This document shows positions 13,881-62,533 of a stretch of DNA of 64,000 nucleotides, piece after piece. Within the stretch, counting starts at the first letter, position 1, and each line of letters starts with the position of its first letter. The stretch is from a virus. The notes under the pieces are model-generated. The model was not told the origin of the DNA. It did not search any database and was given only the letters and a program-made list of their open reading frames with translations. The DNA is taken from the IMG/VR virus record IMGVR_UViG_3300047444_000617, positions 46,249 through 110,248 of that record. One strand, given 5' to 3'. A program made the position numbers and the translations under genes.

Positions 13881-13892
13881 CGTATTTAGTTG

Positions 13893-14240
13893 TTACTCTT
13901 CAGGAGCCTTGGGGTATACGAGGTCGAGGAACGTGCCGACCTTCATGGTCGCGTACTGCTCGCGGGGGTCTGTGACCCCGCGCTTCTTGTGGAAGACCAC
14001 CCCGTGAGGCACGCCCGCGTTCTCGGCCTCGACGGTGGCCTCCTTCAACCAGCCGGACAGGCTCATGGCCTTCTCGTTCTTCGCCTCGATGACGAAGCGG
14101 CCCTCGCCGGGGACGTAGAAGTCGCCCTTGTCGGCCGCGCCGTTCAGCACCCGGCGCTCGGCCAGGGGCTGCTTGGCCTTGATGGCCGGGAGCAGGCTGG
14201 TCTCGAACGAGGTGCCCTTCTGCTTGGACTTGTTCGTCAC
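13893..14240 (-). CDS. Hjc-like Holliday junction resolvase
   Basis: NKSKQKGTSFE...DKGD...VIEAKN PD-(D/E)XK motifs. Confidence 0.8.
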   Translation of the reverse strand: MTNKSKQKGTSFETSLLPAIKAKQPLAERRVLNGAADKGDFYVPGEGRFVIEAKNEKAMSLSGWLKEATVEAENAGVPHGVVFHKKRGVTDPREQYATMKVGTFLDLVYPKAPEE

Positions 14241-35342: not shown

Positions 35343-35364
35343 CAGGCTAACACAGTTACCGTTT
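35343..35364 (-). promoter_or_regulatory. extended -10 promoter TGtTAGCCT with AAACGGTAA operator-like site
   Basis: followed by CTCATC like the other promoters. Confidence 0.55.
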
Positions 35365-35428
35365 CCTGAATACCTGCTGAAAATGCGTAAGGGGCGAGCC
35401 GCGCAAGCAGCCCGCCCCTCCGGGTCGG

Positions 35429-36469
35429 TCAGGTCCAGTAGTCCTCGTTGTACCTGTTGGCCTCCACCTGATCGGCAGCGTCCGACTTGCCGCGACGCTG
35501 GGTCAGCAGTCCCCTGGCGGCCAGGAAATCCCTCCAGGCGGGGACGTTCTCCGATCGCTGCCAGGAAGGCGACCAGTAGGTGATGATCATCTTGGTGATC
35601 TCCTCCTTCGTGGTGCCCTCCCGCATCCACCGGCCGAAGTTCCCGGACAACGCTCCGAAGTTGACAGCCCCTGGCACCGGATGGCCGACCTCCTGAGCCC
35701 GCTTTTCGAAGAAGGAGGCCAGTACCTCTGACGGCCTCGTAGACCGCCTCTCACGACGTTGGCGGACCGGAGGGGCCAGGTCTCCGTCCGAAGCCGGGAG
35801 ATCGCCGTACAGGGTGAACGACGGGGTGTTCTCTTCGAGAGACTGAGCCACCACATACGCCGGGTCCAGTTCCCTCTCCGCCTGGGCGGCTTCCTCGGCC
35901 TCCTGCCTCCGGGTCTTCTTCCGGCCGCCCTTGCGCGGAGCGCGTACCGCATCCCAGCCCTTGCCACCCGGCCTCGGGAGGGCCTCCTCAGCATGGTCGG
36001 GATCTGACCGCGCCGACCGGCGCGGTGGAAGAGACGTAGTCTCTTCTATTTCTCCTACTACTAGTTGGTTACTAGGGTTGGGTGAAAAATCTGCAGGGTG
36101 CAGATTCTGCAGGGTGGGATTGTCCGGGTTTGCATCATGCAGATTCTGCATGTCAACTACCTGCGGGACCGGCTCTTCCACCCACTCCGAAACGGGACGA
36201 ATCCGGCGCACGACGGAGGCGTAGAGAGCCGCTTCCGGGGGTGCCTTCTCCTTCGGGACGGACTCGATGATGCCCCGCTCTTCCAGGCTCTTCAGGCAGG
36301 CGTAGACGCCACGCTCGGACATGCGGGTGCGCTTGGCCAGGGTCTTGACGGACTCCCACATCATGCGGTGGTCGTCTCCGGCCGCGTCAGCGATACGCAG
36401 CAGGACCAGCAGGTCACCCTTGCCCACAGGCGCGTACTGCCAGACCTCGGACATGATCAGGATGCTCAA
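35429..36469 (-). CDS. replication initiator (N-terminal winged HTH)
   Basis: MSEVW...LVLLRIADAA...W.SVKTLAKRTRMSERGV...LKSLEERGII; precedes DnaC/DnaB. Confidence 0.8.
   Translation of the reverse strand: MSILIMSEVWQYAPVGKGDLLVLLRIADAAGDDHRMMWESVKTLAKRTRMSERGVYACLKSLEERGIIESVPKEKAPPEAALYASVVRRIRPVSEWVEEPVPQVVDMQNLHDANPDNPTLQNLHPADFSPNPSNQLVVGEIEETTSLPPRRSARSDPDHAEEALPRPGGKGWDAVRAPRKGGRKKTRRQEAEEAAQAERELDPAYVVAQSLEENTPSFTLYGDLPASDGDLAPPVRQRRERRSTRPSEVLASFFEKRAQEVGHPVPGAVNFGALSGNFGRWMREGTTKEEITKMIITYWSPSWQRSENVPAWRDFLAARGLLTQRRGKSDAADQVEANRYNEDYWT
36040..36150. repeat. putative replication origin: palindromic iterons plus AT-richer tract inside the initiator gene
   Basis: TGCAGATTCTGCA at 36099-36111 and 36138-36150; degenerate copies at 36083 and about 36122. 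Confidence 0.55.
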
Positions 36470-36513
36470 TTGCCCGCCCTGCCAAGGCGGTAAGTATGAA
36501 GCGGTAGCGGCAT
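36466..36513 (-). CDS. 15-aa leader mini-ORF MPLPLHTYRLGRAGN coupled to the initiator
   Basis: TGA overlaps TTG start (TTGA); CTTCATAC in LHT frame. Confidence 0.5.
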   Translation of the reverse strand: MPLPLHTYRLGRAGN

Positions 36514-36563
36514 GATATGGTCTCTCTCATCTCGGGGTTTGTGGTGGGCCTCCGGGTGTGGTG

Positions 36564-36624
36564 GCCAAAGGCCCCCGGCAGTGAATTGAGGTCTCGAACC
36601 TCTTCAATGCCGGGGGCCTTTGGC
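36564..36624. terminator. long hairpin (17-bp perfect outer stem), possibly bidirectional terminator
   Basis: GCCAAAGGCCCCCGGCA / TGCCGGGGGCCTTTGGC with an inner stem. Confidence 0.75.
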
Positions 36625-36628
36625 GTTT

Positions 36629-37795
36629 CTACTCCCCGTCGATGTCGAGGCCCTTCTCCTCGATCTCCGCCCGGGTCAGTTGGACGACCTTCTGTCCGGC
36701 CGGGATACGGCCACGGCCGCGTCGGCTGTAGTTGCCCTTCTCGTCGACCAGGAACGCGAAGGTCTTGGACTCGTCACGCGGACGGCCACGGCGACGACGT
36801 CCCGTGGGCTCCTCCTGCTCCTCCTCGTCCTTCTGCTGGGCCGCCAGGGCCTTGTAGCCCTCCCCCTTCGCCGGGTCCTCCCCGAGCGTATGAAGGGCCT
36901 TGCGCAGCAGTTCGGTCAGCGGTCGCTCGCGCACGTCGGCCTGGTTGATCACGGCGTTGCGCTCGTCCTCCAGGCGCAGGACGGTGTAGGCCGCCTCCAG
37001 AGCGGCGCGGACGAGCGGGAGGTCGATCTCCGTCTCGGAGGACGGGGTGGCATCCCGCTGGGCCTTCTGCGCGGCGCGGTTGACCTGCTGCTCCAGGTCC
37101 TCCTCGACCGGGTCCACCTCGGGCTCGGGCTTGCGGCTGCGACGGCTGCGCTTGGGGGCAGGCTCGTCCTTGGGCTCCTCCGGCTCGTCCTCGGTGAGCG
37201 GCTCCTCCTCCGGCTGGGCCTCCTCCGGCTCGGCCCGGCGGCCACGACGGCGACCGCGCTTGGGCTCCTCCGGCTCGGGCTCCGGCTCGGGCTCCGGCTC
37301 CTCGGCGGCCTCGGGCTCACCGAAGGAGATGTCGTCGAGCCCAGCGGTGAGGTCCTTGGCCTTGATACCCACCTGATCGGCGGCGTCCAGGAGGAGTTCG
37401 GCCTCCTCGCTACCGTCCTCGCCCCACAGCAGTACGAGGTACTTCTCCCCCTCGGCCGCCTCCAGCAGGTCGACGACCTTCGACGTGACGTTGCTGGCCG
37501 TGGCCGTGGAGTCGGCGGCCCGCAGGATCTTGTCGAGCGCCCGGGACTTCTCGCCGTCGGTGACCGCGACGAACGGCAGGTCCACGTACTCGGACCAGTT
37601 CAGCACGGCCTCCAGGCCGTCGGACAGGTGCGTCTTGGTGATCGGGAAGATCAGGTTGATCTCGCGGTCGGAGGGGGCGGGGTAGCCGTCGGCGTCCTCG
37701 TCGCCGAAGCCGAGCCAGTCGTTGAGCAGAGCCTTGATGTTGTCGAGGTCCACGTCGGCCGAACCGGCGAAGGCGAGGGTGATGGGCTTACTCAA
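36629..37795 (-). CDS. acidic protein with C-terminal AT-hook/Lsr2-like motifs
   Basis: alpha/beta N-domain, EP-rich linker, RRGRPR and RGRGRIP motifs. Confidence 0.6.
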   Translation of the reverse strand: MSKPITLAFAGSADVDLDNIKALLNDWLGFGDEDADGYPAPSDREINLIFPITKTHLSDGLEAVLNWSEYVDLPFVAVTDGEKSRALDKILRAADSTATASNVTSKVVDLLEAAEGEKYLVLLWGEDGSEEAELLLDAADQVGIKAKDLTAGLDDISFGEPEAAEEPEPEPEPEPEEPKRGRRRGRRAEPEEAQPEEEPLTEDEPEEPKDEPAPKRSRRSRKPEPEVDPVEEDLEQQVNRAAQKAQRDATPSSETEIDLPLVRAALEAAYTVLRLEDERNAVINQADVRERPLTELLRKALHTLGEDPAKGEGYKALAAQQKDEEEQEEPTGRRRRGRPRDESKTFAFLVDEKGNYSRRGRGRIPAGQKVVQLTRAEIEEKGLDIDGE

Positions 37796-37842: not shown

Positions 37843-37871
37843 ACGTTACAGGTTACCGATTCTAAAAGCAA
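37843..37871 (-). promoter_or_regulatory. promoter TTGCTT-17-TAACGT
   Basis: AATCGGTAA in spacer; CTCATC downstream. Confidence 0.65.
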
Positions 37872-46186: not shown

Positions 46187-48046
46187 TCAGACGAGGTTGC
46201 CGATCGGGATCTTCGCGTTGATCATGAACGTGTCGTTCACCGCGATCGTCGGCAGCCCCTGACCCCGGAACTCGCCACTGCTGTTCACGTAGGTGGCGAT
46301 CGACGCCGTGGCCGTGGACATCCGGATGGCACCACCCGCAGGACTGACGTCACCCCCGAGGCTGACGCCGGGAAGGCCGGTGGCGATCAGAGCACTCGGA
46401 GAGGTGCTGGTGGCATGGAAGACGCCGACCAGGTGGATGTTGTCCTCCCCGTCTCGACGCCACCGGAGGTTCGGGTAGGCACCACCGATGCCTGTGCCCT
46501 GCGCCCATCCGGTACCCATGACCGCGTCGGTCCAGGACTCCGCGTTACCAGAGAGGTCGGCCTTCACCACCGCGCCGCTGACCAGCAGGTTGGCCGCGTA
46601 GGTACCGGTGCGCTCGGTCACCGTTACGCTCGGCGGGAGGGGGAGTGTCGAGTCCCCTTCGGAGATGGTGAGCCGCGCCGCGAGGTTGGGGCCGCCACCT
46701 CCCTCGAAGCCGGAGTCCACCCGGACAGCACCTGGGCCGTCGCTGATCATGGTCGACGAGGCGCCGGTGTTGTTCGCTCCGGCGTCGGTGAAGACCAGTC
46801 CGCCACCAGACAGAGAGGTGGTGGACGTGCCACTGGTCGTGGAGATGTCCCCGTTGGCGCCACCGATGTCGGCCGTCACGGCGCCCGTCGAGTCGTACAC
46901 CTTCATGCTGTTGTCACCCGCCTCGTTCAGCGTGATGCGCTCGCCGGACGTGGCTGTCTGGATGGTGGATCCGGTGATCGTCTTGCCGTCGATGGCGGTC
47001 GCGGACAACTGGGATGCGGAGATCGTCCCCACCGTGATCTTGGTGGCGTCGATGCTGGCGATGACACCACTCGACGCGGTGATCGTCCCGGCCGCCATCT
47101 CGTTGGCCGTCACAGAGTTCGCCGCGATGTCACTGGTACCTGCCTGCTTGGGAGTGTCGGAGTTCGCGCCCGAAGGGGCGGAGGCGATGCCGACCTTGGA
47201 GTACGCGATCAGCCGGTAGTTGTAGGAGTTGGCGTAGTTCTGCACCGAGTCGTAGAGGAAGTCCGGGCCGGTCAGGGTGCCTACGACCACCGGGGCGGGG
47301 AACGCCGGATCCGTGTCGCGCTCGACCTGGACGTGGGAGAAGATCAGTGGCATCGCTGTGCCGGTGTGGTCCAGCCCGTCCCAGGTAACGCGCAGGCCGC
47401 CCAGGACACCCAGGACTGCGGGCGTGGAGGGGACCGGCGGCGGAGTCGTGGAGGACGCGGTGGTGATGTCCGTGGAGGACCACAGGGAGGCGTTGCCGGA
47501 GTTGTCGAGGGCCTGGACGCGGACGAAGAAGTCCACGCCGGTATGAAGGCCGTCGAAGACGACGAGGGTGTCCTCAGTGATCTGGCCGCCGGACCAGTTG
47601 GTGCCGTCGTAGGAGGTCTGCACGACGTAGTGCGACAGGTCGACGAGGTTGGTCCCGTCCTGGTTCTCCGTCGGCGCAGTCCAACTGGCCGTCACGTGCG
47701 CCCGCGTGCTGCCGTCGTCGGCGATGTACTGCACGGTCGACAGTGTCAGCGCGGTCGGCTGCTTGGGAGGCATCGAGTCGTACTCAAGACCCCCTACCTG
47801 GTCCTGTACTTCCTTGATGCCCAGCGGGGAGTACACCGGCTGGGTGACGTCACCACCGGAGAACTGCACCCACACGTTCTGTCCGGCCGCAGGCACGGTG
47901 TTCGTCGGGGAGGCCGGAACCGCCCAGGCGCTCTCCGCTCCGCCCAGGATCTGAGGTATGAGCAGGGTGACGCGGGCCTCCTTGAGGGGGTCCACGTTGT
48001 TGGCAACCGTCCCTGGATACATGCCAAGAACCGGGTCAGACGACAT
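46187..48046 (-). CDS. baseplate spike (gpV/gp5 OB-fold) with FN3 and beta-helix repeats
   Basis: DPL...RV...P...WA.P...VWVQF.GGD...P. Confidence 0.8.
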   Translation of the reverse strand: MSSDPVLGMYPGTVANNVDPLKEARVTLLIPQILGGAESAWAVPASPTNTVPAAGQNVWVQFSGGDVTQPVYSPLGIKEVQDQVGGLEYDSMPPKQPTALTLSTVQYIADDGSTRAHVTASWTAPTENQDGTNLVDLSHYVVQTSYDGTNWSGGQITEDTLVVFDGLHTGVDFFVRVQALDNSGNASLWSSTDITTASSTTPPPVPSTPAVLGVLGGLRVTWDGLDHTGTAMPLIFSHVQVERDTDPAFPAPVVVGTLTGPDFLYDSVQNYANSYNYRLIAYSKVGIASAPSGANSDTPKQAGTSDIAANSVTANEMAAGTITASSGVIASIDATKITVGTISASQLSATAIDGKTITGSTIQTATSGERITLNEAGDNSMKVYDSTGAVTADIGGANGDISTTSGTSTTSLSGGGLVFTDAGANNTGASSTMISDGPGAVRVDSGFEGGGGPNLAARLTISEGDSTLPLPPSVTVTERTGTYAANLLVSGAVVKADLSGNAESWTDAVMGTGWAQGTGIGGAYPNLRWRRDGEDNIHLVGVFHATSTSPSALIATGLPGVSLGGDVSPAGGAIRMSTATASIATYVNSSGEFRGQGLPTIAVNDTFMINAKIPIGNLV

Positions 48047-50293: not shown

Positions 50294-53262
50294 TAGTTTC
50301 CTGCCGCGATGAGATTGATTCGGTCGTCCTCGGCGATGGCCTGGATGAACTTCTGTGCGGCATCTCGGGCCGACTGCTGGTCCATGGCACCCTGCACCTT
50401 GACCACGACCGAACCGGCGTGGAAGTTGAGGGTGGGCGTAGCGCCCTTGGTATGAAGCCCGCCGACTCCCCCGGTAAGCGGCGTGTTCGACGCCAGCGAC
50501 TTGCGGAGAGCCTCGGCCTGGTAGGCGGGGATGATCATCTCGCCCTTGTGGACGCGCGCCGTCTGGTCGACGTCGATGTTCGCCGAGCCGACCGCGTACC
50601 CCTTGTAGGATCCGCCGTTGGCCATGCTCTTGATACCGGGGGCGTTGGCCAGGGAACCGTATCTGGATTCCTCGTACCGCACTCCGGCGATGATGTTGTC
50701 GACCGGGTTCCAGATGTTCTTGTGTCCCGGAAGTGCGTATGCGTTGAACGTGGAGTCGATCGTCTGCATGATGCCCTTGGACGGGTGTCCCGCCTTGGCG
50801 TTGGCATCGGTGTTGTTCTGCGAGCGGGGGTTTCCCCCGGACTCGTGCATGGCGATGGTGTTCACATACCGCTCATTCGCGGGCGTGTCCTGCTTCAGAA
50901 TTCCCAGGGCGCTCTTGATCCACGTCTTGAGGTTCCCGCTAGGCAGCGGGCCGGAGGCGGTCGAGCCGTTGTCAGTGTTGCGGGAGGAGTGCTGCCCGGC
51001 GCCGACACCGGACGTCAGGTTCGCTGCGCCGATCGTGGAGATCCCGGCCGCGATAGCGTCGACCTCCTCGGTGGACCCGTAGTTGCCGACGTCCCCGCCG
51101 AAGCCCATGGTGGACAGCCGGTTGGATGTCGACCCTGCGGTGTCGGAGTTGTCGTTGGCCTGGTCGTTCATGTTGCCGACCGAGCCCAAAATCCGGCGGG
51201 CGTTGGTGAACTCGCCGGGGCTGAAGGAGCGGATACGGACCGAGGCGCCTGTGTGCGGGGCTTCCAGGCACTTGCCATTGCCGATGCACAGCACCACGTG
51301 GTGCGCGGGATTGCCGACGAACATCAGGTCGCCTGCACGCACCTGGTTCATCGGGACGGCCTTGCCGACTTTCTGCTGCTGGGCAGCGGTACGCGGCAGG
51401 CTGACACCGATCTGCTTGAAGGCGAACTGCATCAGGCCCGAGCAGTCGAAGCCGGTCTGCGGGCTGCCACCGCCCCACTTGTACGGGGTGCCCAGGTACT
51501 TCTCGGCGATGCGGATAACGGCGGCTGCGGTCTTGCCAGCACCCTGGGTGCCTGTGGCAGCGGCCCCTCCCCCGCCCGCGCCGGTAGCAGCAGCGGCATT
51601 GCCGCCCGTTCCGCCACCGAAGATGCCCGCGAGCGCGCCCACACCTGCACCGATTCCCGCGCCGATACCGGTTCCGATGACAGGGACGACCGAGCCGATG
51701 GCGGCACCGGTGAGCGCGCCGGTCGCGGTGTCCACCCCGACGTGCGCCAGCTTGTTGCTGGTCTTGCCCTTGACGTGCTTGTCGATGACCTGGTTACCGA
51801 AGTGGTGCACACCCCATGCGCCCAGCCCGTACGCCCCGGCCTTGCCGAGGGTGCTCATGGACAGGTTCAGCATCCCCCCGCCTGCCCCGCCGGGCATTCC
51901 GAGCAGTCGGCTGGCCGAGCCCAGACCCCGGGCGATCCCCAGGGCGCCGAGGCCTCCGCTGATGCTGGATCCGAGCAGCGACCCCGCGCCCCCGGCCCAG
52001 CCCATGATGCCGTCCGCGCCGGACACCTGGAGTATCTTCTGCAGCGACGTGGAGAAGGCGTCCAGCGCCTTGGTGGCGCCCTGAAGCCCTTCGGTGAAGG
52101 CGTCGTTGATGTTGACGTCCTGGTTCCGCAGGGTGCCCGCACGGGTCATCAAGGTGTTGGCCGTCGAGCCGCCGATACCCATCTTGCCGAGGGCGGACTG
52201 GGCGGCGTTCTTCTGCTGCTGCGTCTTGCCGTTGTCACGCTGGTTGGCCAGGTTGGTGTACGTCTGCGCGGTGCCACCGTGCACCTGGGCCAGCAGCATG
52301 CCCTTGAGTTCGCCCTTGACCAGTTCCAGGGTGTTGGCGTCCAGGCCCCACGAGTTCAGCGACTGGTTCAGGCCGGACGCGGGGTCGTCGAGGGTCGCCG
52401 ACAACTGTGCGGCGGTCGTGACCCGCTTGAGTTCGGGGAAGCGCTGGTAGATCTGCTGGGCGATCTGGCGGGGGGTCTGCTTGCTGCCGTTCTTGATCGT
52501 CTGGATCCCGAAGCCGCGCAGGGTGTTGTAGGTGCCTGCGTTCCATGCTGCGGCCGTGCCCTGGGCGCGCTGCGCCTGGGACATCCCCGGGTTCACGTAG
52601 CCGGAGGTGCCCTTGATGTAGTTCCACTGGGTGTTGTACGCGGACGTGCCCGGCGACAGGCCCATCTGGGCCATGATCGAGTACGCCTGCGCGGCGTCCT
52701 GGGTGGACTGGGCGGTGAAGTTGTTCTTGAACGCGGCGTCGCGCAGGTTGTGCCAGGACTGGGAGGAGTACTGCGCTGCCTGATAGGCGGTGGTCTGCAT
52801 CGTGACCTGGTCGGGCAACTCCTTCTGACCCCACTTGACGATGCCCTGCAGGCCGCTCTTGAAGGTGGGTCGGCCGCCGTTGTTGGCCGCGCCCCCACCC
52901 ATGCGCCGGGTACCGGGCCCGGAGCCGCCGGAGCCTCCCTGCCCGCCGTTGTTGCCACCGCCGGTGTTGCCCACCAGGGTCAGGGAGCCGGAGGTGAAGC
53001 GGTACGTACCGCCGTTGCCGAAGCGCGAGCCTCCCTGGCCGCCGTTGGGCTGGGAGTTGGCGAAGTTGCTGGTGCCGTTCCAGACGTCTCCCAGGGCGAG
53101 GCCGATGCCCCGGGCACGGGAGACCTGCCCGATGCCGGTGTTGACCCCCTGGAGCCCGCGCGTGAGGTCGTTGATGGTACGCGTCAGGGCAGAGATCGAA
53201 TCCTGGGCCTGATTGAACCCAAGAAGCGAGCCCTGCCCTGCTACGGTGCTCTCGCTAGTCAT
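50293..53262 (-). CDS. tape measure protein with NlpC/P60 and lytic transglycosylase domains
   Basis: LGTPYKWGG...FDCSGL; HESGGNP...KGIMQTI. Confidence 0.88.
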   Translation of the reverse strand: MTSESTVAGQGSLLGFNQAQDSISALTRTINDLTRGLQGVNTGIGQVSRARGIGLALGDVWNGTSNFANSQPNGGQGGSRFGNGGTYRFTSGSLTLVGNTGGGNNGGQGGSGGSGPGTRRMGGGAANNGGRPTFKSGLQGIVKWGQKELPDQVTMQTTAYQAAQYSSQSWHNLRDAAFKNNFTAQSTQDAAQAYSIMAQMGLSPGTSAYNTQWNYIKGTSGYVNPGMSQAQRAQGTAAAWNAGTYNTLRGFGIQTIKNGSKQTPRQIAQQIYQRFPELKRVTTAAQLSATLDDPASGLNQSLNSWGLDANTLELVKGELKGMLLAQVHGGTAQTYTNLANQRDNGKTQQQKNAAQSALGKMGIGGSTANTLMTRAGTLRNQDVNINDAFTEGLQGATKALDAFSTSLQKILQVSGADGIMGWAGGAGSLLGSSISGGLGALGIARGLGSASRLLGMPGGAGGGMLNLSMSTLGKAGAYGLGAWGVHHFGNQVIDKHVKGKTSNKLAHVGVDTATGALTGAAIGSVVPVIGTGIGAGIGAGVGALAGIFGGGTGGNAAAATGAGGGGAAATGTQGAGKTAAAVIRIAEKYLGTPYKWGGGSPQTGFDCSGLMQFAFKQIGVSLPRTAAQQQKVGKAVPMNQVRAGDLMFVGNPAHHVVLCIGNGKCLEAPHTGASVRIRSFSPGEFTNARRILGSVGNMNDQANDNSDTAGSTSNRLSTMGFGGDVGNYGSTEEVDAIAAGISTIGAANLTSGVGAGQHSSRNTDNGSTASGPLPSGNLKTWIKSALGILKQDTPANERYVNTIAMHESGGNPRSQNNTDANAKAGHPSKGIMQTIDSTFNAYALPGHKNIWNPVDNIIAGVRYEESRYGSLANAPGIKSMANGGSYKGYAVGSANIDVDQTARVHKGEMIIPAYQAEALRKSLASNTPLTGGVGGLHTKGATPTLNFHAGSVVVKVQGAMDQQSARDAAQKFIQAIAEDDRINLIAAGN

Positions 53263-61669: not shown

Positions 61670-62533
61670 TTACGAGTACAGTCCACGCTGGTTCTGGGCT
61701 GCCTGTCCGACGCCCAACTGGCCCCGAATCTTGGCGTACTCCGACATCGGCATCGCCGAAAGGTCGGCAAGGGAGTACGACTTGTGCCCCGGATCGGTGT
61801 CCATCGGTCCCGTGGTGGAATAGCCCGTGGGGCTCACACCGCGCATTGAGGCCCGCTGCTGAATAGCGGCCTGCTGGACCGATTCCAGGATAGCCTGGGT
61901 CTTTTCCTTTACGGTATTGATGCTCGATTCGACCTCGGCCTGGGTGTTGCCGGTGACGAAATCGAGAAGTTCCGGAGCGATGTTTTCCTGCTCCTCGCCG
62001 ACGCGGCGCTGGATGTAGGACTGCAGGGCGTTGAACTCCTGCTCCTTGGCGAAGAGCGCCCGCTCCTGTGCACGCTCCTGCTCGAACTGGGTGAACCTCG
62101 CAGTCCACTCCTGCTCCTTCTGGGCCAGGAGGTCCTTGGCGGACATGTCAGCCTCGGCCAGGGCCTTGGCCTGCGCGGCGGCTTCCTGACGGCGCTGCTC
62201 CTCCTCGGCCTGGGCGGCCTCGCGGGCGGCGCGCTGCTGCTCGATCTCGTCGAGGAACTTCTTGTTCTGGGTCTCGACGGACTCCAGCCGCTTGTACAAC
62301 TTGTCCTTCTCCTCCTGCCGCGCCCGCTGGATGTCCTCGGCGGTGAACCGGGGCTCTGCGGGGGCCGGAGGGGTGGTCGGCTCGACGACAGCGGCCGGGA
62401 TGGTGATGACGGGGTCGCCACCCTCACCAGGCTGCGGAGCGCCACCGGCGATGTTGTAGATCGGGAAGCCGTTCTTGCGGTGGCCCAGCACGGTCATGGC
62501 GGGCAGCGAGATGCCCTGGGTATGAAGCGACAT
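61670..62533 (-). CDS. capsid scaffolding protein
   Basis: coiled-coil between portal and MCP; start MSLHTQG after AGGAG. Confidence 0.75.
   Translation of the reverse strand: MSLHTQGISLPAMTVLGHRKNGFPIYNIAGGAPQPGEGGDPVITIPAAVVEPTTPPAPAEPRFTAEDIQRARQEEKDKLYKRLESVETQNKKFLDEIEQQRAAREAAQAEEEQRRQEAAAQAKALAEADMSAKDLLAQKEQEWTARFTQFEQERAQERALFAKEQEFNALQSYIQRRVGEEQENIAPELLDFVTGNTQAEVESSINTVKEKTQAILESVQQAAIQQRASMRGVSPTGYSTTGPMDTDPGHKSYSLADLSAMPMSEYAKIRGQLGVGQAAQNQRGLYS

Follow-up and report, generated by a model that had tools for sequence, protein, structure and literature searches.

A conserved leader-peptide and predicted antisense-RNA cassette upstream of the replication initiator gene of a temperate actinomycete phage

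We analysed a 64,000-nucleotide (nt) stretch of viral DNA (the window; positions 46,249 to 110,248 of IMG/VR record IMGVR_UViG_3300047444_000617), and in it the region just upstream of a gene for a lambda-O-like replication initiator. The region holds a compact cassette, in which an extended -10 promoter box on the strand opposite to the initiator gene overlaps the start of a 15-codon leader open reading frame (ORF), the leader stop codon overlaps the initiator start codon, and a long hairpin lies next to the end of the preceding gene, which encodes an acidic protein of 388 amino acids (aa). These elements, their conservation and the covariation of the hairpin are observed directly in the related sequences. 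We lean, with somewhat better than even confidence, towards the view that the cassette is a conserved device for post-transcriptional control of the initiator, in which an antisense RNA predicted from the sequence would act together with the leader, much as in plasmid R1. The coordinates are given in Table 1.

Results

Relatives of the locus

Related loci came from three sources. A search of viral contigs with the initiator protein returned 12 loci; a 16-mer from the spacer between the long hairpin and the leader found 63 stretches, 36 of them with the whole cassette, which represent 27 distinct versions; and a search with the 388-aa protein added a distant clade (L089/L136, 25% identity). Column-level conservation of the leader and of the promoter box was read from 23 aligned sequences.

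An invariant promoter box opposite the leader start

An earlier note on the same DNA had placed an extended -10 element on the + strand, across the start of the leader. The box is indeed there, its T36513 lying opposite the A of the leader ATG. The five bases that define its pattern, TGnTAnnnT, are invariant in 23 of the 23 aligned sequences, and the four free positions vary, which gives 11 distinct 9-mers. In the sense orientation, the only invariant columns from spacer to leader are one A and the string A...TA.CA, which reads TG.TA...T on the other strand. The box is kept both in L022, where the leader ATG has moved by 3 nt, and in the leaderless L060; it is, thus, not a by-product of the start codon.

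The same pattern is scarce elsewhere. Both strands of the window together contain 7 copies, against 24.2 ± 4.7 in shuffled sequences (3.5-fold depletion), and the whole 110-kb genome contains 12. The depletion fits the use of the motif by the host polymerase, and such avoidance suggests selection against stray extended -10 promoters. A search for a phage sigma factor gave no match to Sigma70_r2 and only sub-threshold matches to r4. The box is not the only + strand candidate, although the note had noticed no other: + strand matches also occur at 13891-13899 and 53239-53247, both at gene boundaries, the latter within the opening codons of the tape-measure gene. The sister lineage G001 conserves neither of them, and the two provide an internal control for the box in the cassette.

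Two further features that had been proposed around the promoter fared less well. The downstream element CTCATC is present (36526-36531) and is, as the note had it, common to the minus-strand promoters at 35352 and 37848, but relatives keep it neither on the + strand nor at the promoter of the 388-aa gene. The operator-like AAGCGGTAG at 36499-36507 is conserved in its first three bases only, and these are the end of a genome-wide octamer described below.

A predicted two-hairpin antisense RNA

Transcription from the box would run into the long hairpin (SL2 in Table 1), whose perfect 17-bp stem (36564-36580 with 36608-36624) encloses a second small stem. Among the 24 pairs of SL2, 7 show compensatory changes (on both sides, 25 cells of the alignment), and 97.6% of the cells pair. 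For the whole structure 97.8% of cells pair, compared with 39-58% when the partners are slid against each other, and 0 of 500 shuffles reach the observed covariation score. The U-rich tail of SL2 is better on the + strand, and the hairpin of L089 has a U-tract on the antisense side only. The predicted RNA, 36528-36632 (+), folds at -63.1 kcal/mol (z = -7.0), and two helices make up the consensus fold of the antisense strand. The first of these is a 5' hairpin (SL1). Half of its pairs are G.U, so that it can form only in a + strand RNA; on the sense strand the same region is an unstructured, C/A-rich spacer (-4.5 kcal/mol) with two CCACCACA-type repeats. The changes observed in SL1 are one-sided only and always preserve pairing, and the evidence for this hairpin is weak.

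The earlier proposal of an RNA of about 100 nt ending at the 17-bp-stem hairpin is supported by the comparison of 36 related loci, and a two-hairpin antisense RNA of this size is well supported in silico. The RNA had been described as antisense to the leader region. This stands for the untranslated stretch upstream of the leader ORF, but not for the leader ORF itself: if transcription started 7-8 nt past the box, pairing would extend to within ~15 nt of the leader ATG and would reach the border of the purine-rich ribosome site of the leader. SL2 is predicted to serve both as terminator of the antisense RNA and as terminator or attenuator of the transcript of the 388-aa gene. The alternative that the + strand RNA is the message of a small protein was rejected, because indels of +1 and +4 nt in the hairpin loop break any frame.

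The first half of the spacer (36541-36563, minus strand) resembles a recurrent 'extended ribosome site' of this phage, a C/A-rich run followed by GGAGG, and has no start codon after it. The predicted antisense RNA is nearly complementary to the 'extended ribosome sites' of early genes, the best trans duplex lying at window position -4148. In a scan for trans targets of the 5' part of the RNA, the best non-self duplex was one such early-gene site, and only 2 of the 9 sites of this kind ranked high.

A leader ORF that ends on the initiator start

The 15-aa leader and the TTG initiator start, which the note had taken to be coupled, are present as described there. The TGA of the leader overlaps the TTG as TTGA, and the arrangement is conserved: relatives have a leader of 12, 13, 14 or 15 codons, opened by ATG in 21 of the 23 aligned versions, and its stop overlaps the initiator start as NTGA in 21 of 23 (GTGA in most, ATGA in two, TTGA in the window). 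The homologous initiator, accordingly, starts with GTG in most relatives and with ATG in two versions (L036 and L043). Every version that bears a leader keeps its ATG, and the differences in leader length are all multiples of three, while the peptides diverge widely except for a four-residue core. The TTG start of the initiator is well supported, because the codons between the NTG and an internal ATG at 36454 are conserved as protein and because ATG 36454 is missing in L042 and L043. The downstream initiator is a mosaic with at least four different N-terminal domains, before which the cassette is kept. Taken together, coupling of the leader to the initiator is well supported in silico.

Two versions depart from this arrangement. 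L060 has no leader ORF and has instead another gene with a strong ribosome site, whose stop abuts the initiator start. In L065/L128 (IMGVR_UViG_3300047321_000518) the initiator is preceded by a 95-codon ORF that has grown from the first 14 codons of the leader, and the initiator has a different N-terminal domain.

Probable origin of the sense message

No sigma-70-like sense promoter was found between the hairpin and the leader. The 388-aa gene has its own conserved promoter, placed right behind the late terminator, and a TTG start; 9 relatives keep its -35 element, the 17-nt spacing, a TAnnGT -10 element and the TTG. Downstream of the initiator, the gene for the DnaC-like loader has its own extended -10 promoter. 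We therefore infer a two-gene message, so that transcription reaching the initiator most likely begins at the 388-aa gene promoter; the antisense RNA would be complementary to the intercistronic part of this message. The 388-aa gene is conserved upstream of the cassette in all relatives. Its product has no Pfam or PHROG family match and no relative in the bacterial genomes searched with it; it consists of a folded N-terminal part, a long low-complexity acidic/basic linker and an Arg-Gly-rich C-terminus. The spacer 16-mer gave at least 120 matches in bacterial genomes, and none of the matches listed has the hairpin.

Table 1. Positions of the cassette elements and neighbouring features (window coordinates unless marked as genome)
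Feature	Position	Strand	Details
Extended -10 box TGATATGGT (TGaTATGGT)	36513-36521	+	predicted start ~36528-36529, predicted end ~36630
5' hairpin SL1	36531-36556	+	predicted; -12.7 kcal/mol, z = -1.85
Long hairpin SL2	36564-36624		17-bp lower, 4-bp middle and 5-bp apical stem
Leader mini-ORF	36466-36513	-	15 codons + stop; ATG 36513-36511, TGA 36468-36466
Octamer CTTCATAC, Leu-His-Thr	36494-36501	-	leader codons 5-7; on the + strand at ~-35 to -28 of the antisense promoter
Replication initiator	35429-36469	-	346 aa, N-terminal winged helix, lambda-O-like; TTG start 36469-36467
388-aa acidic protein gene	37795-36629	-	stop codon 4 nt from the long hairpin
388-aa gene sigma-70-type promoter	37843-37871	-	-35 TTGCTT, 17-nt spacer, -10 TAACGT
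T-rich terminator	37900-37872	-	directly before the promoter of the 388-aa gene
Hairpin + T-rich tail	35380-35419	-	3' of the initiator
Extended -10 promoter TGTTAGCCT	35352-35344	-	of the DnaC-like loader gene, after the second hairpin
Tyrosine integrase + large serine recombinase	genome 4254-4817 and 6519-6929		~1.7 kb apart, near several + strand genes

An in-frame octamer shared by the leader and the genome

The conserved core of the leader is one copy of the octamer CTTCATAC, which is spread over the whole genome with a strong strand bias, 35 copies on the gene strand versus 1 on the opposite strand. The Leu-His-Thr frame is open at 41 of 41 sites, the -AT variant included. The sister lineage G001 has CTTAATAC instead, with a 37:1 strand bias, and at 25 orthologous octamer sites the two genomes are separated by the C/A difference alone. 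The G001 leader makes the same C-to-A switch (His to Asn), but ends in T rather than C (the -AT form). Relatives whose leader reads LHTY carry 31-39 copies of the octamer; those with an LNIN leader have none. The frame lock is partly trivial, as the A-form has TAA in one of the other frames and TTA plus ATA in the third.

The octamer also occurs in three further mini-ORFs, at 34658-34599 (19 codons), 21285-21251 (10 codons) and 50293-50207 (28 codons), whose stops overlap the starts of the next genes; these encode the 147-aa protein that precedes DnaB, a recombinase of RecA/UvsX type and a tube-like protein. Of the three mini-ORFs, two have a strong ribosome site of their own. G001 keeps such octamer mini-ORFs, and they, together with the concerted C/A switch, are not trivial.

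Copies in the window are found, for example, at 62527, 54266, 36501, 35232, 33904, 31395, 22781 and 21277, the extended consensus being gCTT[C/A]ATACC.aGG, and the octamer is missing from an early region of ~22 kb. Some copies that only the window has (for example in DnaB, the primase and the SNF2 helicase) are ordinary Leu-His codons in G001. The lone opposite-strand copy lies at genome ~5381 (window -40867), in codons 10-12, and that of G001 at ~2306, in codons 6-8; both are in a small, divergently transcribed gene of the integrase region. Since these copies are in frame in a divergent gene, the motif follows expression rather than DNA polarity, and a role as a polarity signal of the DNA (Chi or packaging) was rejected on the same ground, the lone opposite copy being in frame near the start of the divergent gene in both genomes. 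The octamer is not a -35-like element of antisense promoters either, as none of the other copies is accompanied by an antisense -10 at this distance. A sense-strand -10 reading of CATACT inside the leader fails in L022 and L065; that string is actually the octamer.

Genome setting

The record is a complete genome of 110,248 bp with direct terminal repeats, of which the window is the last 64 kb; the window has a G+C content of 65%, and the minus strand holds nearly all of its genes. In minus-strand order, baseplate and tail genes are followed by the T-rich terminator, the 388-aa gene, the long hairpin, the C/A-rich spacer and the 15-codon ORF, and then by the 346-aa initiator, the second hairpin, the DnaC-like loader (219 aa; PHROG 3.4e-18), the 147-aa protein, DnaB, primase and the SNF2 helicase. 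The initiator matches Pfam HTH_36 (5.8e-06) and PHROG replication-initiation and O-like families (down to 2.6e-12, with alignments from residue 1).

The portal protein shares ~60% identity with its counterparts in Streptomyces phage BRock and in similar phages of ~113 kb, and the virion module is of the type of BRock-like myoviruses. Within the annotated phage collection, this protein is the sole link of the genome to those phages; megablast of 34-38 kb and tblastn of the initiator against the same collection gave no match. In the whole genome there are a Phage_integrase match (2.4e-15) and a Resolvase match (9.2e-14, in a 630-aa ORF), and the region with the two recombinases is probably the lysogeny module. 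No match to ParB_N or to CbiA/ParA was found in the complete 110,248-bp genome, and the relative G001 (105,651 bp) is classed as a provirus. The genome is that of a temperate soil-actinomycete phage.

Discussion

If the cassette works by the R1-like combination of antisense RNA and leader that we favour, the sense message would start at the promoter of the 388-aa gene and pass through the long hairpin into the C/A-rich, unstructured leader. With its weak start (TTG or GTG) and poor ribosome site of its own, the initiator would be translated mainly by ribosomes finishing the 12-15 codon leader. The convergent extended -10 promoter would produce the ~100-nt RNA with its G.U-rich 5' hairpin, long hairpin and U-rich tail, an RNA with perfect complementarity to the message over the whole stretch between the upstream stop codon and a point ~15 nt short of the leader ATG. 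Base pairing, convergent transcription or both may then lower translation of the leader or integrity of the message, leading to less initiator. The dose of the RNA would rise with the number of genome copies, or the RNA would persist in the prophage.

Several observations weigh against this model. Conservation of the spacer is uninformative by itself, as the relatives were partly gathered with the spacer 16-mer, and many of the relatives are close kin. The distant L089/L136 keep the hairpin, the spacer, the leader and the TTG start, but without an extended -10 at the equivalent place. L060 keeps the antisense promoter and both hairpins and has no leader ORF. The ribosome site of the leader is weak. 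The LHTY class speaks for the model, in that a hairpin covering both the ribosome site and the start of the initiator shows covariation there (CTCGG/CCGAG versus CCTGG/CCAGG), but that of the window does not exceed shuffles (z = -0.1); masking of the initiator ribosome site by a structure was, therefore, rejected as part of the model. At a permissive threshold, Rfam returned only microRNA models for 36000-37000, at E >= 0.18 and far under their gathering scores. Finally, the leader may exist mainly as a carrier of the octamer.

The distant clade (L089, L134 and L136) shares the layout: behind the stop codon come an A-rich run, a hairpin (12 bp, G+C), the C/A-rich spacer and a leader of 12 codons, which ends 12 nt before a TTG initiator start. 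There is neither octamer nor extended -10, and a U-tract follows the hairpin in the antisense direction alone.

Because L060 has promoter and hairpins and no leader, blockade of the leader cannot be the only mode of action of the RNA, and its leaderless cassette makes action in the manner of lambda oop/pO a serious alternative. Here the convergent promoter would act through interference with the arriving transcript, through double-strand-specific cleavage of the two-gene message or through control of transcription into an origin inside the initiator gene; translation of the leader would not be what is blocked, and the coupling of the leader would be separate and constitutive. In lambda, pO lowers transcription from pR and affects replication (PMC3985674), and the oop RNA ends at the tO hairpin (PMC5869508). 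The position is alike: in a temperate phage, a predicted backward promoter at the start of an O-type gene, convergent with the initiator transcript, would give an RNA that runs to an intrinsic hairpin terminator by the upstream gene. In L060, moreover, the next start codon lies ~50 nt beyond the predicted 5' end of the antisense RNA. On the other hand, oop overlaps cII by 52 bases and regulates it (PMC5869508, PMC3985674), while the RNA predicted here stops at the upstream stop codon and overlaps the 388-aa coding end by a few bases at most. In all versions other than L060 the promoter, the leader ATG and the ribosome site are tightly spaced, as a translational block needs; lambda O has no leader ORF, and neither sequence similarity to the lambda system nor an Rfam match was found. 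We regard the lambda-like action as a strong alternative, if on balance an unlikely one. Another account, which we consider improbable, is that no antisense RNA is made, the hairpin being only the terminator of the 388-aa gene and the sense A...TA.CA a protein site or the context of the leader ribosome site. The hairpin does lie 4 nt past the stop codon, A/T pairs at the lower end of its stem would allow bidirectional termination, SL1 is weak (z = -1.85, one-sided changes) and the L089 clade has no box. Yet in 11 versions what is invariant coincides exactly with the defining bases of an extended -10, and what varies coincides exactly with its free positions; CA is kept even where no ATG adjoins it; and to read TAnCAT, across the leader ATG, as a sense-strand -10 does not work for L022 and L060, would place the transcription start within the leader and would cut off the start of the leader.

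It is also possible, if rather doubtful, that the leader is chiefly an octamer carrier, so that reading of the motif in translation would gate the initiator by coupling, as for three other genes, and the antisense promoter would be secondary or incidental. The core of the leader is the octamer and follows the genome-wide C-to-A switch in the sister lineage, and three more octamer mini-ORFs end on the start of the next gene, a kind of arrangement that G001 keeps. However, the L089 leader has no octamer, the leader copy of the sister lineage ends in T instead of the usual C, and the conserved antisense box, absent at all other copies of the octamer, would be left unexplained. A related and equally tentative idea gives both inputs a place: the leader would be a sensor in a phage-wide translational code, in which a lineage-specific factor reads the octamer CTT-[C/A]AT-AC at the ribosome, four genes are wired in via mini-ORFs, and the antisense RNA adds a second, copy-dependent input at the initiator alone. 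The earlier note had instead taken the architecture to indicate replication control like that of a phage-plasmid. Copy-number control of an extrachromosomally maintained phage-plasmid would fit the likeness to plasmid rep control and a record that is complete with direct terminal repeats. The check proposed with that idea, partition genes present and integrase absent, came out the opposite way: the genome has a tyrosine integrase and a large serine recombinase and no match to ParA/ParB families. With the provirus G001 added, the phage-plasmid inference is not supported; the virion module of BRock-like myoviruses also stands against it, and we hold it to be highly improbable. Overall, the R1-like reading is the best single model, with the lambda-like action as its strong alternative and the octamer as an added layer.

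In plasmid R1 (IncFII), translation of the tap leader peptide is blocked by the CopA antisense RNA, which in this way controls repA; the control was reportedly described by Blomberg, Nordstrom and Wagner in 1992, in a paper listed by PMC10724649. The cassette resembles it in that the end of a short leader ORF would be coupled to the initiator start, here with TGA over TTG, and in that a two-stem-loop countertranscript of ~90-100 nt, here predicted, would be targeted just upstream of the leader ribosome site, so that a block would fall on translation of the leader and not on initiation at the initiator itself. Since its predicted 5' end falls ~15 nt short of the leader ATG, where the ribosome site begins, the geometry matches that of CopA/tap. 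Unlike in R1, the initiator matches only HTH_36 and the PHROG O-like families and not IncFII RepA, the cassette belongs to an actinomycete phage of high G+C content that has integrases, the long hairpin would at the same time terminate the transcript of the upstream gene, no gene for a CopB-like repressor was seen, and the leader carries a genome-wide motif. Plasmids of the I-complex (IncI, IncB, IncK and IncL/M), on which PMC10724649 lists references, use an antisense RNA (Inc RNA/RNAI), the RepY leader and a pseudoknot. They share with the cassette the pairing of antisense RNA and leader peptide, translation of the leader there opening the structure that covers the ribosome site of the initiator. 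The RNA predicted here differs in its two hairpins and in the position of its target, and the start hairpin covaries in one class and is not significant in the window. The sar RNA of phage P22 is a small cis-antisense RNA whose promoter lies in the leader of a phage gene, convergent with the promoter of that gene, as would be the case here. In contrast to the predicted RNA, sar covers the ribosome site of ant directly and is tied neither to replication nor to a leader ORF. Of the known systems, R1 CopA/tap and lambda oop/pO come closest, and the cassette is a member of neither.

Control by a countertranscript and a leader is textbook knowledge for enterobacterial plasmids, as oop/pO is for lambda; to our knowledge, neither design has been described for large temperate actinomycete phages. 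If the RNA exists, the cassette would be a natural hybrid of both designs, with 27 sequence versions as a ready mutational series, and would offer a handle on how such phages restrain replication of the prophage or pace infection. The link to the octamer matters more, because it connects one cassette with a signal that runs through the whole genome and has been rewritten base for base in two lineages. If true, the octamer code would represent a novel type of global mRNA signal, read in frame and relayed by leader peptides, and the link makes the reader of the signal approachable via one small leader-initiator' reporter.

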